Positions 5,901 to 13,346 of a DNA stretch of 32,000 bases are shown in pieces. The notes below the pieces were generated by a model. That model did not search any database and was not told where the DNA came from. It saw only the letters and a list, made by a program, of their open reading frames with translations. The stretch is from Methanopyrus kandleri AV19 (GTDB taxonomy: Archaea; JAADCQ01; Methanopyri; Methanopyrales; Methanopyraceae). How positions within the stretch are numbered: the first letter of the stretch is position 1; the number at the start of each line of letters is the position of its first letter. The position numbers and the translations under genes are program-made. Location of the stretch: positions 390,001 through 422,000 of the forward strand of contig NC_003551.1 in the NCBI RefSeq assembly GCF_000007185.1, written 5' to 3'.

Positions 5901-6710
5901 TTGGACCTGCTGAAGCTGGCCCGCGGAAACACCGTGATCAAGTTCGATTTCGAGCCAGAAGTGGAGGAGCCGGTCCTCGTGGAGGGGCTTCCCGGCATCG
6001 GGCACGTAGGCAAGCTAGCCGCCGAGGCGATGATCGAGGACTTAGGCGCCGAAAAGTTCGCGGAGCTGTACTCACCGTACTTCCCACCACACGTATCCGT
6101 GAATGAGGATGGCATCGTGGAAGTAATGAGGAACGAGTTCTACGTGTACGAATCCGAAGGTGATGAACCGGACATCATCTTCCTCATCGGCGAGGCGCAG
6201 GCGCAGGGTGAGCTCGGACAGCATGAGGTCACCATCCGCATACTGCAAACCGTTAAGGAGTTCGGAACGGAAATGATCTTCACACTCGGAGGCCTCGGAA
6301 CCGGGACCGTCCCGACGGAACCCAAGGTCGTTGGGGCGGCTACGCACAAGGAGCTTATCGACCTGCTGAAGGAGCACGGTATTGAAGTCCGCAGCGGCGA
6401 CAAAGGCGGCAACATCGTAGGAGCTTCCGGTCTGCTGCTCGGCTTCGGGAAGATGATGGGCATGAAAGGAGTCTGCCTGATGGGTGTAACTCCGGGGCAC
6501 GTTATCGACCCACGGGCCGCGATGGCCGTCGTCGAGAAACTGTCCACGATTCTGGGGGTTGAAGTCGAGGCCGATTCGTTGAAGAAGCGGGCCGAGCGAT
6601 TCGAGCGCGAATTCGTGGCACAGCTGGAGGAGATGCCTTCGGCGCTCGAAGAGGCGCAGCAGGAGGCGGAGGAGGGTAAGCCGGAAGAAGACCTCAGGTA
6701 CATCGGGTGA
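5901..6710 (+). CDS. PAC2-family proteasome assembly chaperone-like protein (COG1938)
   Basis: TTG start. LVEGLPGIGHVGKLAAEAMIEDLGAEKFAELYSPYFPPHV matches the PAC2/COG1938 N-terminus. The gene usually follows Nop10 in archaea. It has an acidic C-terminal tail. Confidence 0.75.
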   Translation: MDLLKLARGNTVIKFDFEPEVEEPVLVEGLPGIGHVGKLAAEAMIEDLGAEKFAELYSPYFPPHVSVNEDGIVEVMRNEFYVYESEGDEPDIIFLIGEAQAQGELGQHEVTIRILQTVKEFGTEMIFTLGGLGTGTVPTEPKVVGAATHKELIDLLKEHGIEVRSGDKGGNIVGASGLLLGFGKMMGMKGVCLMGVTPGHVIDPRAAMAVVEKLSTILGVEVEADSLKKRAERFEREFVAQLEEMPSALEEAQQEAEEGKPEEDLRYIG

Positions 6711-6716
6711 GCCTCG

Positions 6717-7583
6717 TTGGGATCACATTGGCGACACGCCGTCCGCGCTATTTCCTCGGCACTCTCCCCCTTCATCCCCCCCTCACTGTCCCCTTGGATC
6801 GCCTTGGTTTCCGTATGTGTGGAAGAGTACGGTCCGCCTCTCACAGCCGTAGCCTCAGGAATCACGGCAGCAGCTATCACCGGACACCCCATATTCGCAA
6901 TGGTTTCTGCCCTAATAGGCGAATTTACCGTGGGAGCCGCGCTTCGCAGGAAGCTCCCACGAAATCCCGTTTCAACCCTGCTGTACTCCGCCGTGGGAGG
7001 AGCCGCAGTAGCTCCATTGGTACTCCGAGCTACGTTAACTCCCCTTCACGCCTTGATCTTCGGACTCACACTCTTTACGGCTTTCATCCGGCCCCCACTC
7101 GCCCCCATAATCTACGAGAAGCGGGAACGGTACGACCCGTGGAATTCGATCGTCCTGGCCGCGCTGATGATATACGGTCTTGCACCGCTCGTAGGTCTCG
7201 AGAACTCTTGCTTGGCCTTCCTCGTCGCTAAGGGCGTAGATGGAGCCGGCGGTCTCGCACAGTTCATCCCGGGATCGATCAATCCCGTAGTGTCGCTCAA
7301 GGGGTTTCGGATCCGTGAGGTTGAGGAGGGAATCAGCCCGATCGGAACGTTCTTCGAGTTCTTAGCGGCGTTGGGGTTAGGATGGCTGATCACCGGAAGC
7401 ACTCAAGGTGCCTTAGTGATGGGTATCGCCGTAACCGCGGCGGACATCCTCTCGAACGTTACCGGAGTCGAAGACCACCACAAAGGAGACGACCTGCTCA
7501 TGATGCTATCGGCGGCGTGGGTGATCCAAACCTTCGGAGTCTCGGGCTTAATGCGGCTCCTAGGGCTGATGCCGGGGTGGTGA
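6717..7583 (+). CDS. polytopic integral membrane protein, family not recognised
   Basis: The 288-aa ORF has many hydrophobic segments and stops 3 nt before the next gene. The true start is uncertain (TTG at 6717 or an internal GTG/ATG). Confidence 0.5.
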   Translation: MGSHWRHAVRAISSALSPFIPPSLSPWIALVSVCVEEYGPPLTAVASGITAAAITGHPIFAMVSALIGEFTVGAALRRKLPRNPVSTLLYSAVGGAAVAPLVLRATLTPLHALIFGLTLFTAFIRPPLAPIIYEKRERYDPWNSIVLAALMIYGLAPLVGLENSCLAFLVAKGVDGAGGLAQFIPGSINPVVSLKGFRIREVEEGISPIGTFFEFLAALGLGWLITGSTQGALVMGIAVTAADILSNVTGVEDHHKGDDLLMMLSAAWVIQTFGVSGLMRLLGLMPGW

Positions 7584-7586
7584 GGG

Positions 7587-8081
7587 GTGGACCTAAGGTA
7601 CCTAACCAGCGCCATCTCGGTATCGCTGTTCGTTTACTCGGGCATAGACACAGAGCCGCTCCAGTACGTGACGGCCCAGTGGGTGGAAAGTGTGCTCCAC
7701 TTAATGGGGCTCACCGTTCCCAAGGCCGGCTACACGTTCCAAGTCGGAACCGTAAGTGCGATGATCGTGAAGGGATGCGTCGTCTGGCCCGCTATCTCGC
7801 TGTTCGTAGGATTGATCGTCGCCACTCCCGGCCCATCCGTACTCCGGAAAATCGCCGCCCTCGCCGCGTCCGTAGCACTGCTCACGGCCGGCAACGTGCT
7901 AAGGCTGGCGAGCATGTTCTACATGATGGAGGTGTGGGGAGTAGGGTTCCGACTAGCCCACGATGTGATCGGTCAGTTGGTGGGACTCGCCATCGTCATA
8001 CTAGCGGCGTGGGTGGCGTTCTATATCGTGCCGGAAACCGAAGATAAGCTCCGTGAAATAATCCCTTGGCCGGGTGAGTGA
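7587..8081 (+). CDS. exosortase/archaeosortase-family protein (short form)
   Basis: 164 aa, all transmembrane helices. The ordered Cys/Arg/His triad of the EpsH domain is present: MIVKGCVVWPAISLF, AGNVLRLASMF, LAHDVIGQLVG. Confidence 0.7.
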   Translation: MDLRYLTSAISVSLFVYSGIDTEPLQYVTAQWVESVLHLMGLTVPKAGYTFQVGTVSAMIVKGCVVWPAISLFVGLIVATPGPSVLRKIAALAASVALLTAGNVLRLASMFYMMEVWGVGFRLAHDVIGQLVGLAIVILAAWVAFYIVPETEDKLREIIPWPGE

Positions 8082-9336
8082 AGTGGGAGAACAATACGAC
8101 TCGGACCTACATCTACACTCCCAGTACTCGGGCGGTACCTCACCGAGAATGGTGATACGGGAGATAGCACGAGGAGCCGCCAAGAAAGGCCTAGATCTCG
8201 TCGGCACGGGCGACATACTGCACCCGAAATGGAGGCGCCACGTGCGGAGGGAGCTCGTGGAAGACGAATACGGACTCCTTAAGGAGCCGAAAACCGGTGT
8301 ACTGTTCGTCCCGACGGTAGAGGTTGAAGACGAGCGCCGCGTGCACCATTTAATCATCCTACCATCACTCGATCACGCCGAAGAACTGCACGGAGAACTT
8401 TCCAGGTACTCCGACGACATCGATGCCGAAGGCCGGCCGCATCTGCGCATGACTGGGGCGGAGCTGGCGGATTTACTCAAAGATCACGATTGCCTCTTCG
8501 GACCCGCCCACGCCTTCGTGCCGTGGACGAGCGTTTTCAAAGAGTACGACTCGCTGAGGGAATGCTATGGTAGCGCCATGGACCGTGTGGACTTCGTGGA
8601 ACTCGGACTTTCGGCAGATTCCGATTACGCGGACCGGATATCGGAACTTCACGAGTACACGTTTCTCACGTGCTCCGATGCCCATTCCCCATACCCGCAT
8701 CGTCTGGGCCGCGAGTTCGTGAGGTTCGAGCTAGAGGAGCCGTCGTACGACGTTCTCAAAGCGGCGATCAGAAGGAAACCGGGTGGCCGCGTGGTACTCA
8801 ACGTGGGACTCATCCCCGAGCTGGGTAAGTACAACCGAACCGCCTGTGCTCGGTGCAAGCGCCAGTTCGAGCTCGAGGAGGCAGAACGCCTTAATTGGAG
8901 ATGCCCTGAATGCGGAGGTACGATTAAAAAAGGCGTCCGGGACAGGGTCTTAGAACTGGCTGACCTCGAGAAGCCGAAGCATCCGAACCATAGACCACCT
9001 TACCTCAGAATTATCCCTCTAGCCGAAATAATCGCGAAAGCCCTCGGACTCTCGACTATAACCGCCAAGAAGGTCAGGGCTGTTTGGAACTCGTTGGTCC
9101 GACGCTTCGGTAGTGAAATAGACGTACTAATCGAAACACCGATCGAGGAGATAGCAGAAGTCGATGAGCGGGTTGCTGAACTGCTGAAATCGTTCAGGGA
9201 GGGAACCGTGAACATTCGACCGGGTGGAGGCGGAGAGTACGGGAAAATAATCACGGAAGAGGAATCGGAACGCGAGGAGCCCAGAAGTCGCAAGCCCGTC
9301 CAGCGCACACTCGACGAGCTGATAGGCCGGGGGTGA
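8074..9336 (+). CDS. endoQ: endonuclease Q (PHP domain plus Zn ribbon; cleaves 5' of deaminated bases)
   Basis: Motifs present: DLHLHSQYSGG, EVEDERRVHHLIILP, GPAHAFVPWTSVFKEYDS, CSDAHSPYPHRLGREF, CARC...CPECGGTIKKGVRDRVLELAD. These closely follow the EndoQ/COG1379 architecture as I recall it. Confidence 0.85.
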   Translation: MSEVGEQYDSDLHLHSQYSGGTSPRMVIREIARGAAKKGLDLVGTGDILHPKWRRHVRRELVEDEYGLLKEPKTGVLFVPTVEVEDERRVHHLIILPSLDHAEELHGELSRYSDDIDAEGRPHLRMTGAELADLLKDHDCLFGPAHAFVPWTSVFKEYDSLRECYGSAMDRVDFVELGLSADSDYADRISELHEYTFLTCSDAHSPYPHRLGREFVRFELEEPSYDVLKAAIRRKPGGRVVLNVGLIPELGKYNRTACARCKRQFELEEAERLNWRCPECGGTIKKGVRDRVLELADLEKPKHPNHRPPYLRIIPLAEIIAKALGLSTITAKKVRAVWNSLVRRFGSEIDVLIETPIEEIAEVDERVAELLKSFREGTVNIRPGGGGEYGKIITEEESEREEPRSRKPVQRTLDELIGRG

Positions 9337-10784
9337 CAAGACTGTTTTTCAGGCGACGAAGCGTGGAATCCTTCGCGGAGAGAATCGAAGTCAAGGTAGG
9401 GGTGGAAGAGGAGCTTTTCCTCATCGACCGGGACGGATCACTGACTCGGGCTGCAGACGATGTAATCGTGAAGGCGGCGGAGCTGTTGGAGTCAGACTCG
9501 AATCTCCTAGAGGATTGCTGGCGAACCGTTCTGGGGTTGGATCCCGAACCCAATCCGGCCCAAATCGAATACCTGACCCAGCCTTTACCTCCCGATGAAG
9601 TGATCGAGGCCTGTGAGATAGGCAGGGAACTCATAAAGAAAGCCGCCGAGGAGTTGGGACTACAGGTTATGTTAGAAAGTATGCATCCTTTCGAGAGCGA
9701 CCCGCTACCTATTAACGGAACCCACATCAACGTGATGGTGAAACTTAAGGATCAACCGTACATGACTCCAAAGCAGATATTAGTAGTTTACAATTGGTTG
9801 TGGCATAACTTACCAATTATAATCGCAGCAACTGCGAACACACCATATTGCTGTGGCGGAAAAAATCTCGCAGCTAGTTGTCGCCTCCTCAAAAGCAGGG
9901 TACTCAAACCGAATTACTACGCAGCGATAAAGCGTCTGGAGAAGCGCCCATACTTGACGAAAACCCAGTATTATGGAAGGTTGAGGTACAGACTGAGACT
10001 TAGGAAGGATACTGAGTTCGAGGAGCGGGTCGTAGCGCACCCCGACGGTCGAAGGCTCGTGGACATAACCCCCAGAGGACCCGCATCGAACGTCACGGGA
10101 GACGAGAACGACAGCCCGACTAGGAACAGAGTTGAGGTGCGGGTAATCGATAATCAAAAGTCCATGAAATATTTACATGATGTGGTAATGCTTATAGTAG
10201 GATTATCTTTGGAAGCACTATATATATATGAAGTAGAGGGTAAATTACCGCCAAATGATCCTAATCATTTTGATAATAGAAGAGAAGCCATAGAGAAAGG
10301 TATTAACGCTACTTTCGTTATTAACGGTAGGGAAATTGATGCTGAAGACGCCTTACTAAAAATTATAAGTAGAGTAGATAAATTTTTAGAGCATTTGGGA
10401 TTACGTTTCGTATCTCCTCTTAAGAATGGAAAAGTAGAGTTACAAGAGAGGCCAAAACTAAATGTAGAGTATGTACATAAGGATGTCATAAAGTATATCG
10501 GAAATTACGCAGAGGTTATATTAGGGTCGAATAAAACTGTTGAAATTAAAGGGAAAAGGTACACAATTCCGAAAGGTACTAAAGTAATCGGTAAGTTAGT
10601 TCCGATGGCATCTTACAAGTACAGAGTTGATAACAAGGGTTTTGTTAAGGATATAATTAAGGGCGTTGTAACACTCGGAATAAAGCGAAACGGTGTAGAA
10701 ATTCCCTTAGACGAGAGTGACAGAATAGTAAACGTAATGTCAGAGCTGGAGTACTTAATGCGTTCGATGAGGGGATTGTTGTGA
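9333..10784 (+). CDS. GCS2/YbdK-like ATP-dependent carboxylate-amine ligase with about 100-aa Lys-rich C-terminal extension
   Basis: GTG start overlaps the endoQ stop. VGVEEELFLIDRDG and RVEVRVIDNQ match family motifs of glutamate-cysteine ligase family 2. The ORF stays open through about 640 nt of roughly 33% GC DNA, which supports coding. Confidence 0.65.
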   Translation: MTRLFFRRRSVESFAERIEVKVGVEEELFLIDRDGSLTRAADDVIVKAAELLESDSNLLEDCWRTVLGLDPEPNPAQIEYLTQPLPPDEVIEACEIGRELIKKAAEELGLQVMLESMHPFESDPLPINGTHINVMVKLKDQPYMTPKQILVVYNWLWHNLPIIIAATANTPYCCGGKNLAASCRLLKSRVLKPNYYAAIKRLEKRPYLTKTQYYGRLRYRLRLRKDTEFEERVVAHPDGRRLVDITPRGPASNVTGDENDSPTRNRVEVRVIDNQKSMKYLHDVVMLIVGLSLEALYIYEVEGKLPPNDPNHFDNRREAIEKGINATFVINGREIDAEDALLKIISRVDKFLEHLGLRFVSPLKNGKVELQERPKLNVEYVHKDVIKYIGNYAEVILGSNKTVEIKGKRYTIPKGTKVIGKLVPMASYKYRVDNKGFVKDIIKGVVTLGIKRNGVEIPLDESDRIVNVMSELEYLMRSMRGLL

Positions 10785-10785
10785 A

Positions 10786-11517
10786 ATGATCATAGACGTG
10801 CATAACCATCTAGGAGAGGATATCGACAGTACAGTTCAAACACCCCAGATGCTGTTGGCAAGGATGGAAGCGGCGGGCGTAGACATCGCGGTAGTGTTTC
10901 CGTTCAATGACGTCGATCCGGGAGTGTGTTTCTCGAAAGCCAATGATCGAATCGCGAAGGCGTGCGAAGAGTACGATGAGTTCGTGGGATTCTGTCGGGT
11001 AGATCCGAACTACGAGGAACGCGCCGTAGAAGAAGTGGAAAGATGCATAGAGGAGCTGGGGCTTAAAGGCGTAAAACTCCATCCCCGGAGCCAGTCGTTT
11101 TACCCCGACGATCCCGAGGCCGTGAAGGTCGTTGAAAAAGCCGCAGACCTGGGAGTACCCGTGATACTCCACACTGCACGCGGTGAACCGTTCTCCGATC
11201 CCGTCCGCGTCGGTAAGTTAGCGGAGGAAGTTCCTGACGTTCAGCTGATCATGGCGCATATGGGTAAGGAGCTAGGATATGATGCGGCGATTGAAGTAGC
11301 GGAAAACTACGAGAATGTTTACCTCGAAGTATCGTTGGTAAAAGACCCCAAAGTAATTGAGAAGACGGCCGAACGTGTGGGTGATGATCGGATAATTTTC
11401 GGGTCTGATTCACCTTATGGTAGCCCATCAGTACAACTTGAAATCGTAAAAGAAGCGGATGTTAATCACGATAAAATCTTGGAGGAAAATGCTGCAAATA
11501 TATTGGGGTTGCGGTGA
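10786..11517 (+). CDS. TIM-barrel metal-dependent hydrolase (Amidohydrolase_2 / COG2159 type)
   Basis: N-terminal MIIDVHNHLG (HxH), VKLHP, VILHT, AHMG and the C-terminal FGSDSPYG metal-ligand pattern are present. The gap from the upstream gene is 1 nt. Confidence 0.75.
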   Translation: MIIDVHNHLGEDIDSTVQTPQMLLARMEAAGVDIAVVFPFNDVDPGVCFSKANDRIAKACEEYDEFVGFCRVDPNYEERAVEEVERCIEELGLKGVKLHPRSQSFYPDDPEAVKVVEKAADLGVPVILHTARGEPFSDPVRVGKLAEEVPDVQLIMAHMGKELGYDAAIEVAENYENVYLEVSLVKDPKVIEKTAERVGDDRIIFGSDSPYGSPSVQLEIVKEADVNHDKILEENAANILGLR

Positions 11518-11520
11518 AGA

Positions 11521-12249
11521 TTGCTTCGTACAAAGGTTATAGAGTTAGTTTTACATGATGGACCAATAACTGTCGATGAAATTTCAAAGAAGTTAAAAAT
11601 TGATTCAGAGTCGGTATTAAAGATAGTTCGAACTACTCCTGATTTGAAACTAGAAGATGGGAAGGTCAGCGCCCAGATGGGTATTAACGGATATATAGAA
11701 CTCACCGGGACGCGGCCAGTGCTGATAACAGCACCTCACGCTCAAGGTCCAGGTGCGGATGTATTTACGGGTGAGATCGCGTGGAAGGTGGCCCAAGCTA
11801 CCGGAGCGTACGCTTTAGTGGCCACCGTCAGCAGGCGAGCCAAGCTGGAAGACGGGAACCCGGCGGATTACAACCGCGAGTGGGCCCGGAACACTCCATT
11901 TCGGCGTCGCATCGACGAGCTAATCAAAAGGTACGGCGTTCGGTTCATAATCGACGTGCACGGGATGGAGTCCGATCCAGTGCGACCGGACGTAGACTTG
12001 GGGACCTTAGGTGGCCGATCCGCGAAAGGGAAGCTCGTATCCAAGATTGTGAAGCGGTTGGAAGAGGCCGGTTTCGACGTAGGATTCGAACAGGAATTCC
12101 AAGGTGGGGACATACTCGAGTACCATTGCGACGGAGAGCGTGTTCAAGGCGTTCAACTGGAGCTCTCCGAGGAGCTAAGGGAGTTAGGAGAATATAGAGC
12201 CATACAGGCTGTACTCGTGGTCGTTAATACAGTACTGGAGGAGGTGTAA
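11521..12249 (+). CDS. winged-helix DNA-binding domain fused to an N-formylglutamate amidohydrolase / poly-gamma-glutamate hydrolase-like zinc hydrolase domain
   Basis: The N-terminal roughly 55 aa (VIELVLHDGPITVDEISKKLKIDSESVLKIV) look like an ArsR/MarR-type wHTH. The rest carries VLITAPHAQGPGADVFTGEIA and FIIDVHGM, resembling FGase/PghP-fold metal sites. Assignment is tentative. Confidence 0.5.
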   Translation: MLRTKVIELVLHDGPITVDEISKKLKIDSESVLKIVRTTPDLKLEDGKVSAQMGINGYIELTGTRPVLITAPHAQGPGADVFTGEIAWKVAQATGAYALVATVSRRAKLEDGNPADYNREWARNTPFRRRIDELIKRYGVRFIIDVHGMESDPVRPDVDLGTLGGRSAKGKLVSKIVKRLEEAGFDVGFEQEFQGGDILEYHCDGERVQGVQLELSEELRELGEYRAIQAVLVVVNTVLEEV

Positions 12250-12253
12250 TACC

Positions 12254-12685
12254 ATGGTAGCGGTGGTGTTGGTCGGGCACGGGAGCCGGCTTCCCTACAG
12301 TCGGCAAGTCGTCGAAAAAATCGCTGAATACGTCGAAGAGATGGGCGACTTCGAGACCGTCGAAGTAGGTTTCATGGAGCTATGTGAGCCTACCGTTCAG
12401 GAAGCCGTAAAGAAGGCGGCAGAGTCCGGTGTCGACAAGATAGTCGTCGTACCGGTGTTCCTGGCCCACGGTGTGCATACGAAGAGAGATATCCCGAAGA
12501 TGCTAGGGCTGGAACCGGAGTGGGACGATGACGAAGACGACCACGACCATCATCACCACCATCACCGCGACTACACGCCCGTAGACGTAGACGCGGAAAT
12601 AGTGTACGCGGAGCCGCTCGGGGCTGATCCCAGAATCGCCGAGATAGTCATCGATAGGATCAAAGAGGCGCTAGGCGAGGAATAA
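12254..12685 (+). CDS. cfbA: small class II chelatase CbiX(S)/CfbA (sirohydrochlorin cobalto-/nickel-chelatase)
   Basis: 143 aa. VVLVGHGSR and VVPVFLAHGVHTKRDIP are present. The protein carries an Asp/His-rich insertion. Confidence 0.85.
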   Translation: MVAVVLVGHGSRLPYSRQVVEKIAEYVEEMGDFETVEVGFMELCEPTVQEAVKKAAESGVDKIVVVPVFLAHGVHTKRDIPKMLGLEPEWDDDEDDHDHHHHHHRDYTPVDVDAEIVYAEPLGADPRIAEIVIDRIKEALGEE

Positions 12686-12698
12686 CCGGGGCCTCCGC

Positions 12699-13346
12699 TT
12701 GATCATCGCCACTCTTACAGGCAGAACCATCGAGGATATGGTGGAACTGGCTATAGAAGCCGTAGAGCAGGGTGCGGACGCTCTGGAGGTCAGGCTCGAT
12801 TACTTGGAGAACTTAGACATGTCGACGGCGCTCAGAGCCGTGCGAGAGTGTACTAGGTACGAACGCGTAGTGGCGACGCTCCGACGCGAAGAGGAGGGAG
12901 GACTGTACAAAGGCGATGAAGATCGGAGGCTCGAAATCCTGGAGCGGGTGTCCTCCGAGGCCGACTACGTGGACTTGGAGCTCGACGTAGCGGAGGAAGA
13001 GATCATAAGCCCGTCCTGTGAGACGATCGTGTCGTACCACAACTTCGAAAATACGCCGCCTAAGGAGGAGCTGATCGGCATCAGGGACCGGTGCGCCGAA
13101 TTAGGAGACGTTGCGAAGGTCGTCACTATGGCCAGGGGACACGAAGACGCACTGCGGATCCTGGAAGTAGTACGAACGGCAGAAGCACCCACTATAGGAT
13201 TCGCGATGGGAGAGGAGGCCAAGTACACCAGGGTAGTGAGTGTTCTGATCGGCGGGTTCGCGACTTACGCCGCTGTGAGGAAGAAAGCGGCACCAGGGCA
13301 GCTGACGGTCGAGGAGACACGCAAGTTGCTGGAACTACTCGGTTAG
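12699..13346 (+). CDS. aroD: 3-dehydroquinate dehydratase, type I
   Basis: TTG start. ADALEVRLDYL, SYHNFENTP and AKVVTMA are type I DHQase motifs. Confidence 0.9.
   Translation: MIIATLTGRTIEDMVELAIEAVEQGADALEVRLDYLENLDMSTALRAVRECTRYERVVATLRREEEGGLYKGDEDRRLEILERVSSEADYVDLELDVAEEEIISPSCETIVSYHNFENTPPKEELIGIRDRCAELGDVAKVVTMARGHEDALRILEVVRTAEAPTIGFAMGEEAKYTRVVSVLIGGFATYAAVRKKAAPGQLTVEETRKLLELLG

Follow-up and report, generated by a model that had tools for sequence, protein, structure and literature searches.

In the Puu pathway, gamma-glutamyl amides are made and removed by a pair of enzymes: the gamma-glutamylputrescine synthetase PuuA, a ligase having a glutamine synthetase (GS) fold, gamma-glutamylates the amine and the gamma-glutamyl-GABA hydrolase PuuD removes the glutamyl group. 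GmaS and GlnA3 are other gamma-glutamyl-amine synthetases. The superfamily of carboxylate-amine/ammonia ligases is defined by five motifs, namely GhExE or Ex[EH] in strand 1, acidic residues in strands 2 and 3, [HD]x[NH] in strand 4, two arginines (one in strand 5 and one in the loop that precedes it) and Ex[RK]x2D in strand 6 (PMC2588565). In the same work, Iyer, Burroughs and Aravind (2008) described a bacterial ligase family called "new CAL" (e.g. C. perfringens CJD_1902), the neighbours of which are a GATase-like thiol peptidase or an AIG2 cyclotransferase; as no Pup-like open reading frame (ORF) was present, this family was assigned to peptide or metabolite synthesis and not to protein tagging (PMC2588565). 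The general kind of system, a GS-fold ligase associated with enzymes that remove gamma-glutamyl amides, has therefore been predicted before, in bacteria. We have analysed a stretch of 32,000 nucleotides of the archaeon Methanopyrus kandleri AV19 (contig NC_003551.1, positions 390,001 to 422,000; designated below as the window), in which three consecutive genes encode a divergent ligase of this superfamily (P1), a small Amidohydro_2 enzyme (P2) and an FGase/PghP-like zinc amidohydrolase preceded by a probable winged helix-turn-helix (wHTH) domain (P3). With modest confidence, we favour the view that P1 and P3 constitute a functionally coupled ligase/amidohydrolase pair acting on one glutamyl-type amide, because the adjacency of the P1 and FGase genes recurs in unrelated archaeal lineages with different flanking genes. 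As the earlier note on this DNA supposed, no described pathway with this ligase family was found in the literature searched, nor any description of the extra domain of the ligase, of its partnership with FGase or of the fusions of FGase with DNA-binding modules.

Nineteen loci containing a member of the P1 family were compared by tblastn and by all-against-all clustering of ORFs (loci are numbered with the letter L and protein clusters with the letter P and four digits, e.g. P0071). In Methanopyraceae (the window, L006 and L041), the order P1, Amidohydro_2, wHTH-FGase is kept between the same housekeeping flanks down to a P1 identity of ~60-63%. In Korarchaeota and relatives (L003 to L005, together with L020, which appears related), the order is ATP-grasp, FGase (~300-325 amino acids, aa) and P1, and the FGase and P1 genes overlap in L003. 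The same three genes are found, in this order, in a genome labelled "Nitrososphaerota" (L019, identical to L043), and in the L036 lineage the FGase gene is divergent from P1. Outside the Methanopyraceae, the P1-FGase adjacency is consequently present in Korarchaeota and in at least two more lineages (L019/L043 and L036), and the flanking genes differ each time. The proposal that the three genes travel together thus holds for the ligase-FGase pair, which is conserved across distant archaea, and is not supported for P2, which joins the pair only in Methanopyraceae.

In the 13 loci from Asgard archaea and from one Bathyarchaeota genome, P1 is followed by a GGACT gene (9 of the 13) and/or by a class-I GATase gene (12 of the 13), and no FGase gene was found in the available sequence around these P1 genes. 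The GATase was examined in one locus (L001), where it retains its nucleophilic Cys and the HPE motif (Cys-His-Glu triad). The same ligase is thus associated either with FGase or with GGACT/GATase, each taking the place of the other. A protein of 428 aa (P0240, L044:238-1524) contains both a GGACT and an FGase domain and ties the two alternative partner types together. In Korarchaeota, the ATP-grasp protein displays its best matches with the MptN/RimK alpha-L-glutamate ligases, and also matches the TTL and YheCD families, and for an enolase-superfamily protein encoded beside it the best match is L-Ala-D/L-Glu epimerase; none of these scores reaches the equivalog cut-off. Each recurrent partner of P1 is a member of a family with characterised enzymes acting on glutamate-containing amides. 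The idea that such a ligase and its hydrolases build and remove gamma-carboxyl amides is therefore echoed by the GGACT and class-I GATase of Asgard archaea and by the RimK/MptN-like ligase and the epimerase-like gene of Korarchaeota. These interchangeable partners point to a glutamyl-amide metabolism and offer a testable handle on an archaeal metabolite or modification.

The context of the Asgard members is the same as that of the bacterial "new CAL" family, namely a GS-fold ligase of GCS2 size beside a class-I GATase and/or a gamma-glutamyl cyclotransferase, without a Pup-like ORF. The two families are likened by this description and not by sequence, and the context is shared only by the Asgard/Bathyarchaeota loci, the window having FGase and Amidohydro_2 genes instead. 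The accessible part of the "new CAL" account makes no mention of FGase, ATP-grasp, wHTH or histone partners, nor of the C-terminal domain found in the P1 family (PMC2588565). The PafA/Dop pupylation system also combines a ligase of the same superfamily with an amide-cleaving partner. However, Dop is a paralogue of PafA and not an FGase, and the profile of the P1 family matched no PafA or Dop chain at E <= 1. A system of Pup type would show, beside the ligase, a small ORF of 50-90 aa with G[EQ] at its end, and a linkage to proteasome genes. Among ORFs of at least 40 aa located within 5 kb on each side of P1 in the 19 loci, no conserved small ORF, Pup-like or other, was detected, antisense shadows excepted, which speaks against the peptide or protein tag of Pup type that had been envisaged.

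Other genes were observed in the vicinity of P1. In six of the 13 Asgard loci (L001:3136-7901 and its counterparts in L011, L013, L016, L018 and L021), a BcrAD/BadFG-type activator gene and two HGD-D genes directly precede the ligase gene. In NCBIfam, these HGD-D proteins best match "double-cubane-cluster-containing anaerobic reductase". Two loci, L001 and L002, have an insertion of an IS605 OrfB/TnpB gene that separates the activator gene from the HGD-D genes. Five loci contain, at most ~4 kb upstream of P1, a gene of the ADP-forming acyl-CoA synthetase alpha type (CoA_binding/Succ_CoA_lig) (L003:4216-5790, L020, L008, L015 and L017); these loci belong to both the FGase-type and the GATase-type contexts.

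P1 carries the motifs VGVEEELFLIDRDG and RVEVRVIDNQ. It matches the Pfam family GCS2 (PF04107) with 22.3 bits for a cut-off of 21, in the residues 22-121 (positions 1-91 of the 291 of the profile). In contrast, its score is far below the cut-off for TIGR02050 (34.6 vs 176.4) and for all NCBIfam glutamate-cysteine ligase equivalogs (18-28 vs 332-437), including the NF0100xx models (20-28 vs 330-430). A search of 5.8 billion proteins recovered only 64 clusters of the P1 family, nearly all full length and comprised between 470 and 492 aa. Identity to P1 is of 60-92% in Methanopyraceae, ~38% in Asgard archaea (Hod-, Loki-, Thor- and Promethearchaeota) and in one Bathyarchaeota genome, and 29-36% in Korarchaeota and further lineages. 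When the family profile was compared with the solved structures, YbdK was recovered (1r8g at 4e-8, 1tt4 at 6e-7). The AF2 model of P1, computed from the family alignment, has a mean predicted local distance difference test (pLDDT) of 91.8 and a predicted template modelling score (pTM) of 0.88. Compared with the PDB by Foldseek, this model matched 1tt4 (1e-14) and 1r8g (3e-13), followed by many glutamine synthetases and by gamma-glutamylmethylamide synthetase.

All five ligase motifs are kept, invariant or nearly so, in an alignment of 27 sequences of the family, the residues being placed on the strands by the AF2 secondary structure. The strand-1 motif G23-V-E25-E-E27 is nearly invariant and the residues Glu72, Glu79, His131, Arg241, Arg248, Glu268, Arg270 and Asp273 are invariant; in the motif His131-x-Asn133, the Asn alternates with Ser in some members. 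As the motifs are conserved and the modelled fold is like that of YbdK and glutamine synthetase, P1 is predicted to be a catalytically intact GS-fold ligase, forming a distant branch near YbdK. It differs from the YbdK/GCS2 ligases by the marginal, N-terminal Pfam match and the low NCBIfam scores, by its gene partners and by a C-terminal beta domain of ~110 residues without known relative. The P1 family is thus a small and scattered ligase family of Methanopyraceae, Asgard archaea, Korarchaeota and other uncultured lineages, with a conserved extra domain of unrecognised fold.

This extra domain (residues ~375-483) is compact, beta-rich and ends in a helix in the AF2 model (pLDDT of 88.9 for the domain alone). 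Its content in Lys is 12.8%, vs 5.9% in the core. It is found in every full-length member of the family, and Gly420 and Asp463 are invariant in the alignment of 27 sequences. No match was obtained in Pfam and no significant Foldseek match in the PDB or BFVD. The Lys-rich, beta-rich extension that had been left unassigned in the earlier note is therefore real and common to the whole family. This domain probably helps to recognise the amine or another acceptor, or contributes to assembly.

P3 contains the motifs APHAQGPGAD and DVHG. It matches the family FGase (PF05013; 3e-14, 54 bits for a cut-off of 28.9) in positions 113-217 of the 219 of the profile, and the family Gamma_PGA_hydro (PF05908; 6e-7, 29.5 bits for a cut-off of 22). 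These are the families of the N-formylglutamate amidohydrolase HutG and of the phage poly-gamma-glutamate hydrolase PghP. The residues His73, His147 and Glu214 of P3 are invariant in the 47 best members of the subfamily, and are the putative counterparts of the conserved His/His/Glu residues of these families, the Zn ligands and the general base of the solved enzymes. P3 differs from HutG by its score with the equivalog TIGR02017 (14.7 vs 278.75 bits), by the fusion to a DNA-binding module and by its context, as no hut gene was found in the window. With a profile, 695 relatives of P3 were recovered among 1.84 billion representative proteins, and just 13 of them have an E-value below 1e-30. Profile searches bear out all three family assignments made initially (GCS2-like ligase, with a marginal match, Amidohydro_2 and FGase/PghP-like hydrolase).

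The closest FGase relatives of P3 (44% identity) are found in L046 (1-11723) and L047, in an operon that contains leucine-rich repeat, VWA+CDC48_N, CDC48_N and Zn-ribbon genes together with a conserved gene of 297 aa of no assigned family, and no P1 homolog. This operon may represent a different FGase-based system. The protein P0192 (L046, 7001-8974) is a fusion of FGase with a PQQ-type beta-propeller, and P0194 is an FGase with an N-terminus of 430 aa of no recognised family. A GCS2-FGase fusion had been considered among these long relatives; it was rejected, given the nature of P0192 and the unrecognised N-terminus of P0194.

The N-terminal region of P3 matches HTH_24 (9e-5, 22.4 bits for a cut-off of 21.9), and MarR, TrmB, HTH_11 and TFIIE-alpha give sub-threshold matches on the same residues 3-38. 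The profile of five P3 orthologs gave only weak matches with helix-turn-helix (HTH) proteins in the PDB (E >= 0.026). This region (55 residues) is translated solely when P3 starts at the TTG in position 11521 (form of 242 aa). In three other Methanopyraceae lineages (including L006 and L041) the frame that follows this TTG is likewise open, and it is conserved; in this N-terminal frame the second codon position changes least (0.40, against 0.60 for the first and 0.69 for the third). For these reasons the wHTH-FGase fusion is accepted as likely from the sequences, though not proven. Another FGase, encoded in L036 (5820-6677, P0071) by a gene divergently adjacent to that of a P1-family ligase of 490 aa, carries a C-terminal archaeal histone (HMfB, E = 1.4e-9) in which the RKT motif is retained. 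A second cluster, P0193, displays the same FGase-histone architecture. As the wHTH is at the N-terminus and the histone at the C-terminus, in separate lineages, sequence comparison indicates that the fusion of FGase to a DNA-binding module would have arisen at least twice. The repeated fusion of a hydrolase to a probable wHTH and to a true histone is unusual, and it suggests an enzyme-coupled transcriptional control or a chromatin-localised chemistry in archaea.

P2 matches Amidohydro_2 (PF04909) over positions 1-289 of the 289 of the profile (1e-39, 137.4 bits for a cut-off of 26.4), and TatD_DNase with 5e-8. Its metal motif is His6-Asn-His8 (HNH in MIIDVHNHLG). The nearest solved relatives are LigW, ACMSD, the gamma-resorcylate decarboxylases and the hydratase LigJ. 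Because these are decarboxylases and a hydratase, amide hydrolysis by P2 cannot be assumed; the name of the Amidohydro_2 family does not imply this reaction, and the designation of P2 as an amide hydrolase is not retained. The family is large (359 matches, many of them to proteins of other archaea or of bacteria that are 40-52% identical). The three closest homologs from outside the Methanopyraceae that were looked up (44-52% identity) adjoin pntAB/mdh/nadE or feoB, and neither a ligase nor an FGase gene is nearby. In each of the three Methanopyraceae lineages, P2 is flanked by P1 and P3, and no homolog was found at the 16 other P1 loci (up to 10 kb on each side). We regard P2 as an addition peculiar to the Methanopyraceae, and for this protein taken alone chance or lineage-specific recruitment is quite possible, if a little short of an even bet.

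In the pathway that we propose, a carboxylate would be phosphorylated by P1 and then joined to an amine to form an amide; this carboxylate would most likely be in the gamma position of glutamate or of a glutamyl-containing compound. P3, as a Zn-dependent amidohydrolase of the FGase/PghP type, would cleave the same amide, or one very similar to it, and so set glutamate free and allow the product to be turned over or recycled. In Asgard archaea, a GGACT gamma-glutamyl(amine) cyclotransferase and a class-I GATase-type hydrolase would be paired with the same ligase, and in Korarchaeota and relatives a RimK/TTL-like glutamate ligase would be an optional extra. As acceptor, a small amine or peptide (e.g. 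a polyamine, an amino acid or a short Glu-peptide) is more likely than a protein tag. With its DNA-binding module, P3 would either regulate its own expression in response to its substrate, as BirA and PutA do, or be brought to DNA as a hydrolase. P2 would have been added in the ancestor of the Methanopyraceae and may process an intermediate of the pathway, a role unsupported outside this family. In this scheme the folds, the catalytic motifs and the synteny come from the analysis itself, and the class of substrate, the direction in which each step runs and the binding to DNA are inferred. This logic is that of the Puu pathway, and the P1 model matches gamma-glutamylmethylamide synthetase; P1 nevertheless belongs to the YbdK-like branch and not to GS type I/III, the hydrolase of the window is of the FGase type and not a class-I GATase, and no oxidase or dehydrogenase gene is nearby. 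A cofactor tail of methanogens had been suggested as target in the earlier note. This role was rejected, as outside the Methanopyraceae the P1 family is found in Asgard archaea, Korarchaeota and other metagenome genomes of non-methanogens.

Several observations weigh against the coupling of P1 and P3 in a glutamyl-amide pathway. The GCS2 match of P1 is marginal and restricted to the N-terminus, P3 matches just the C-terminal half of the FGase model, and no significant sequence match links P3 to a solved FGase (2q7s, E = 0.29). The closest FGase relatives are encoded in unrelated operons and no P1 gene is present on the available contigs, so that the FGase subfamily is not exclusive to the P1 ligase. 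Glutamate is no more than a candidate for the carboxylate used by P1; in addition, the GATase partner could feed ammonia to the ligase, which would lead to an amidation and not to a gamma-glutamylation. The spacing of the genes (1 nt between P1 and P2, 3 nt between P2 and P3 in the ORF list) had been taken as a sign of coupling. The gaps are as reported, as are the three genes, their coordinates and the quoted motifs. However, the eight successive same-strand junctions from 5901 to 13346 all measure between -8 and +13 nt; as they are equally tight, the spacing of P1, P2 and P3 proves nothing. Finally, the GC content at the third codon position (GC3) of P1, P2 and P3 gives the three lowest values among the 31 ORFs of the window (0.47, 0.53 and 0.54, vs 0.71 +/- 0.06 with a minimum of 0.60), and the GC content falls to 0.33-0.34 at 10200-10600. 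The low GC3 counts in favour of the grouping of the three genes, but this signal is weaker in the orthologous region of L006 and absent in L041, at an identical genome position. The low GC3 of the trio fits a common history or a common expression level and not a recent insertion. A recent horizontal-transfer island was considered as its origin; this candidate is weakened by the position of the trio, kept at ~60-65% P1 identity, and by the absence of the signal in L041.

Another reading makes P1 a GshA-like gamma-glutamylcysteine ligase that would produce a low-molecular-weight thiol, with FGase, GGACT and GATase as degradation enzymes of the gamma-glutamyl cycle, so that the locus would be a divergent version of a known thiol metabolism. 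GGACT-fold enzymes do take part in the breakdown of gamma-glutamyl peptides, the only named families matched by P1 are the YbdK/GCS2 glutamate-cysteine ligases, and several P1 homologs are annotated as glutamate-cysteine ligases in the databases. A review has also counted InterPro matches of the GshA family in Asgard and TACK archaea (PMC7278568). The scores of P1 with the glutamate-cysteine ligase equivalogs, far under the cut-offs as given above, are difficult to reconcile with this reading, and gamma-glutamylcysteine synthesis involves neither such an extra C-terminal domain nor a RimK-like ligase or dipeptide-epimerase-like neighbours. Moreover, no such thiol is reported for Methanopyrus in the literature searched. 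We consider this explanation unlikely, and by sequence P1 is only a candidate for a gamma-glutamylcysteine ligase activity.

The DNA-binding modules raise the question of a glutamyl-type modification of a macromolecule associated with DNA or chromatin. By analogy with the TTLL glutamylases and CCP deglutamylases, P1, together with the TTL/RimK-like ATP-grasp of Korarchaeota and related lineages, would add the modification, and an FGase delivered by its wHTH or histone would remove it, the pair being an archaeal writer and eraser of a glutamyl-type amide on chromatin proteins or DNA-bound polyamines. The FGase is indeed fused at one end to a probable wHTH in Methanopyraceae and, independently and at the opposite end, to a genuine histone in L036; its closest relatives include the beta-propeller fusion and have as neighbours genes for modules of protein interaction (VWA, CDC48_N and LRR); the Korarchaeota ATP-grasp partner matches the TTL, RimK and YheCD families; and the extra domain of P1 could dock a target. 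Against this, neither a target nor a conserved small ORF near P1 was found, the Asgard partners GGACT and GATase are enzymes of small-molecule type, and the wHTH assignment is borderline. Enzyme-HTH fusions are also more often autoregulators, as BirA and PutA. Such a writer/eraser pair is quite improbable in our judgement; if true, it would be a prokaryotic counterpart of the eukaryotic TTLL/CCP glutamylation, in which the previously unseen beta domain of the ligase would read the target. An adjacency without functional meaning, in which three unrelated enzymes would be packed in a dense genome, would agree with the equally tight junctions, with the unrelated contexts of the P2 homologs and with flanks that are clearly unrelated housekeeping genes (PHP-like, CfbA, AroD), but it is very improbable, as P1 and FGase genes are again neighbours, between different flanks, in Korarchaeota and in at least two more lineages and as the three genes hold the lowest GC3 values of the window.

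Features of the P1-P2-P3 locus and of its flanks (positions in the window)
Feature	Position	Strand	Remarks
P1, complete gene	9333-10784	+	483 aa
P1 catalytic core	9333-10454	+	divergent GS-fold carboxylate-amine ligase, distantly YbdK/GCS2-like; AAM01640.1 / Q8TY80
P1 C-terminal beta-rich, Lys-rich domain	10455-10784	+	residues ~375-483; specific to the P1 family
P2, small Amidohydro_2 (COG2159-type) TIM-barrel metal-dependent enzyme	10786-11517	+	243 aa; full-length Pfam match
P3, complete gene	11521-12249	+	242 aa
P3 N-terminal probable wHTH	11521-11685	+	HTH_24 match; needs TTG start 11521
P3 FGase/PghP-like zinc amidohydrolase domain	11686-12249	+	conserved partner of P1
PAC2 proteasome-assembly-chaperone homolog	5901-6710		upstream housekeeping flank
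Exosortase_EpsH counterpart	7587-8081		upstream housekeeping flank
CfbA (sirohydrochlorin nickelochelatase) homolog	12254-12685		downstream of P3

Exact matches of the three proteins are present in the databases (P1, AAM01640.1; P2, AAM01641.1; P3, WP_148679498.1). The start codons are uncertain, as public models give 483, 473 or 460 aa for P1 and 242, 201, 190 or 176 aa for P3. In the AV19 GenBank record, the ligase AAM01640.1 (Q8TY80) bears the title "Predicted metal-dependent hydrolase of the TIM-barrel fold", which would suit the adjacent P2 instead. In the original model of P3 (AAM01642.1, 176 aa), neither the wHTH region nor the conserved GY.E..G stretch is included. The public annotation is thus corrected on two points: the ligase bears the name of its neighbour and the original FGase gene model misses the N-terminal domain.

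Scans of the window with Rfam and for tRNA genes found nothing. No archaeal TATA-like motif or inverted repeat, as promoter or operator for the wHTH, was found upstream of P1; the few matches are internal to P1, in its AT-rich part, and are at chance level (9 observed for 8.3 expected). The PADLOC defence models gave no match with P1, P2, P3 or the Korarchaeota and Asgard partners, and there is consequently no evidence for a known defence system.

The longest ORF of P1 overlaps by 4 nt the upstream gene, PHP-like and matching TIGR00375. Further upstream, the flank 5901-8081 is conserved in L006 and L041. It includes the PAC2 homolog, and at its end the counterpart of a gene that gene calling in L006 and L041 gives, at this position, as exosortase/archaeosortase-like. 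The proximity of the PAC2 gene (2.6 kb upstream) to a ligase of the PafA superfamily appears to be a coincidence. Downstream of P3 are found the genes of CfbA, the nickel chelatase of F430 synthesis, and then of AroD; like the PHP-like flank, they are housekeeping genes unrelated to the trio. The CfbA homolog contains an acidic, His-rich insert, DDDEDDHDHHHHHHRD.

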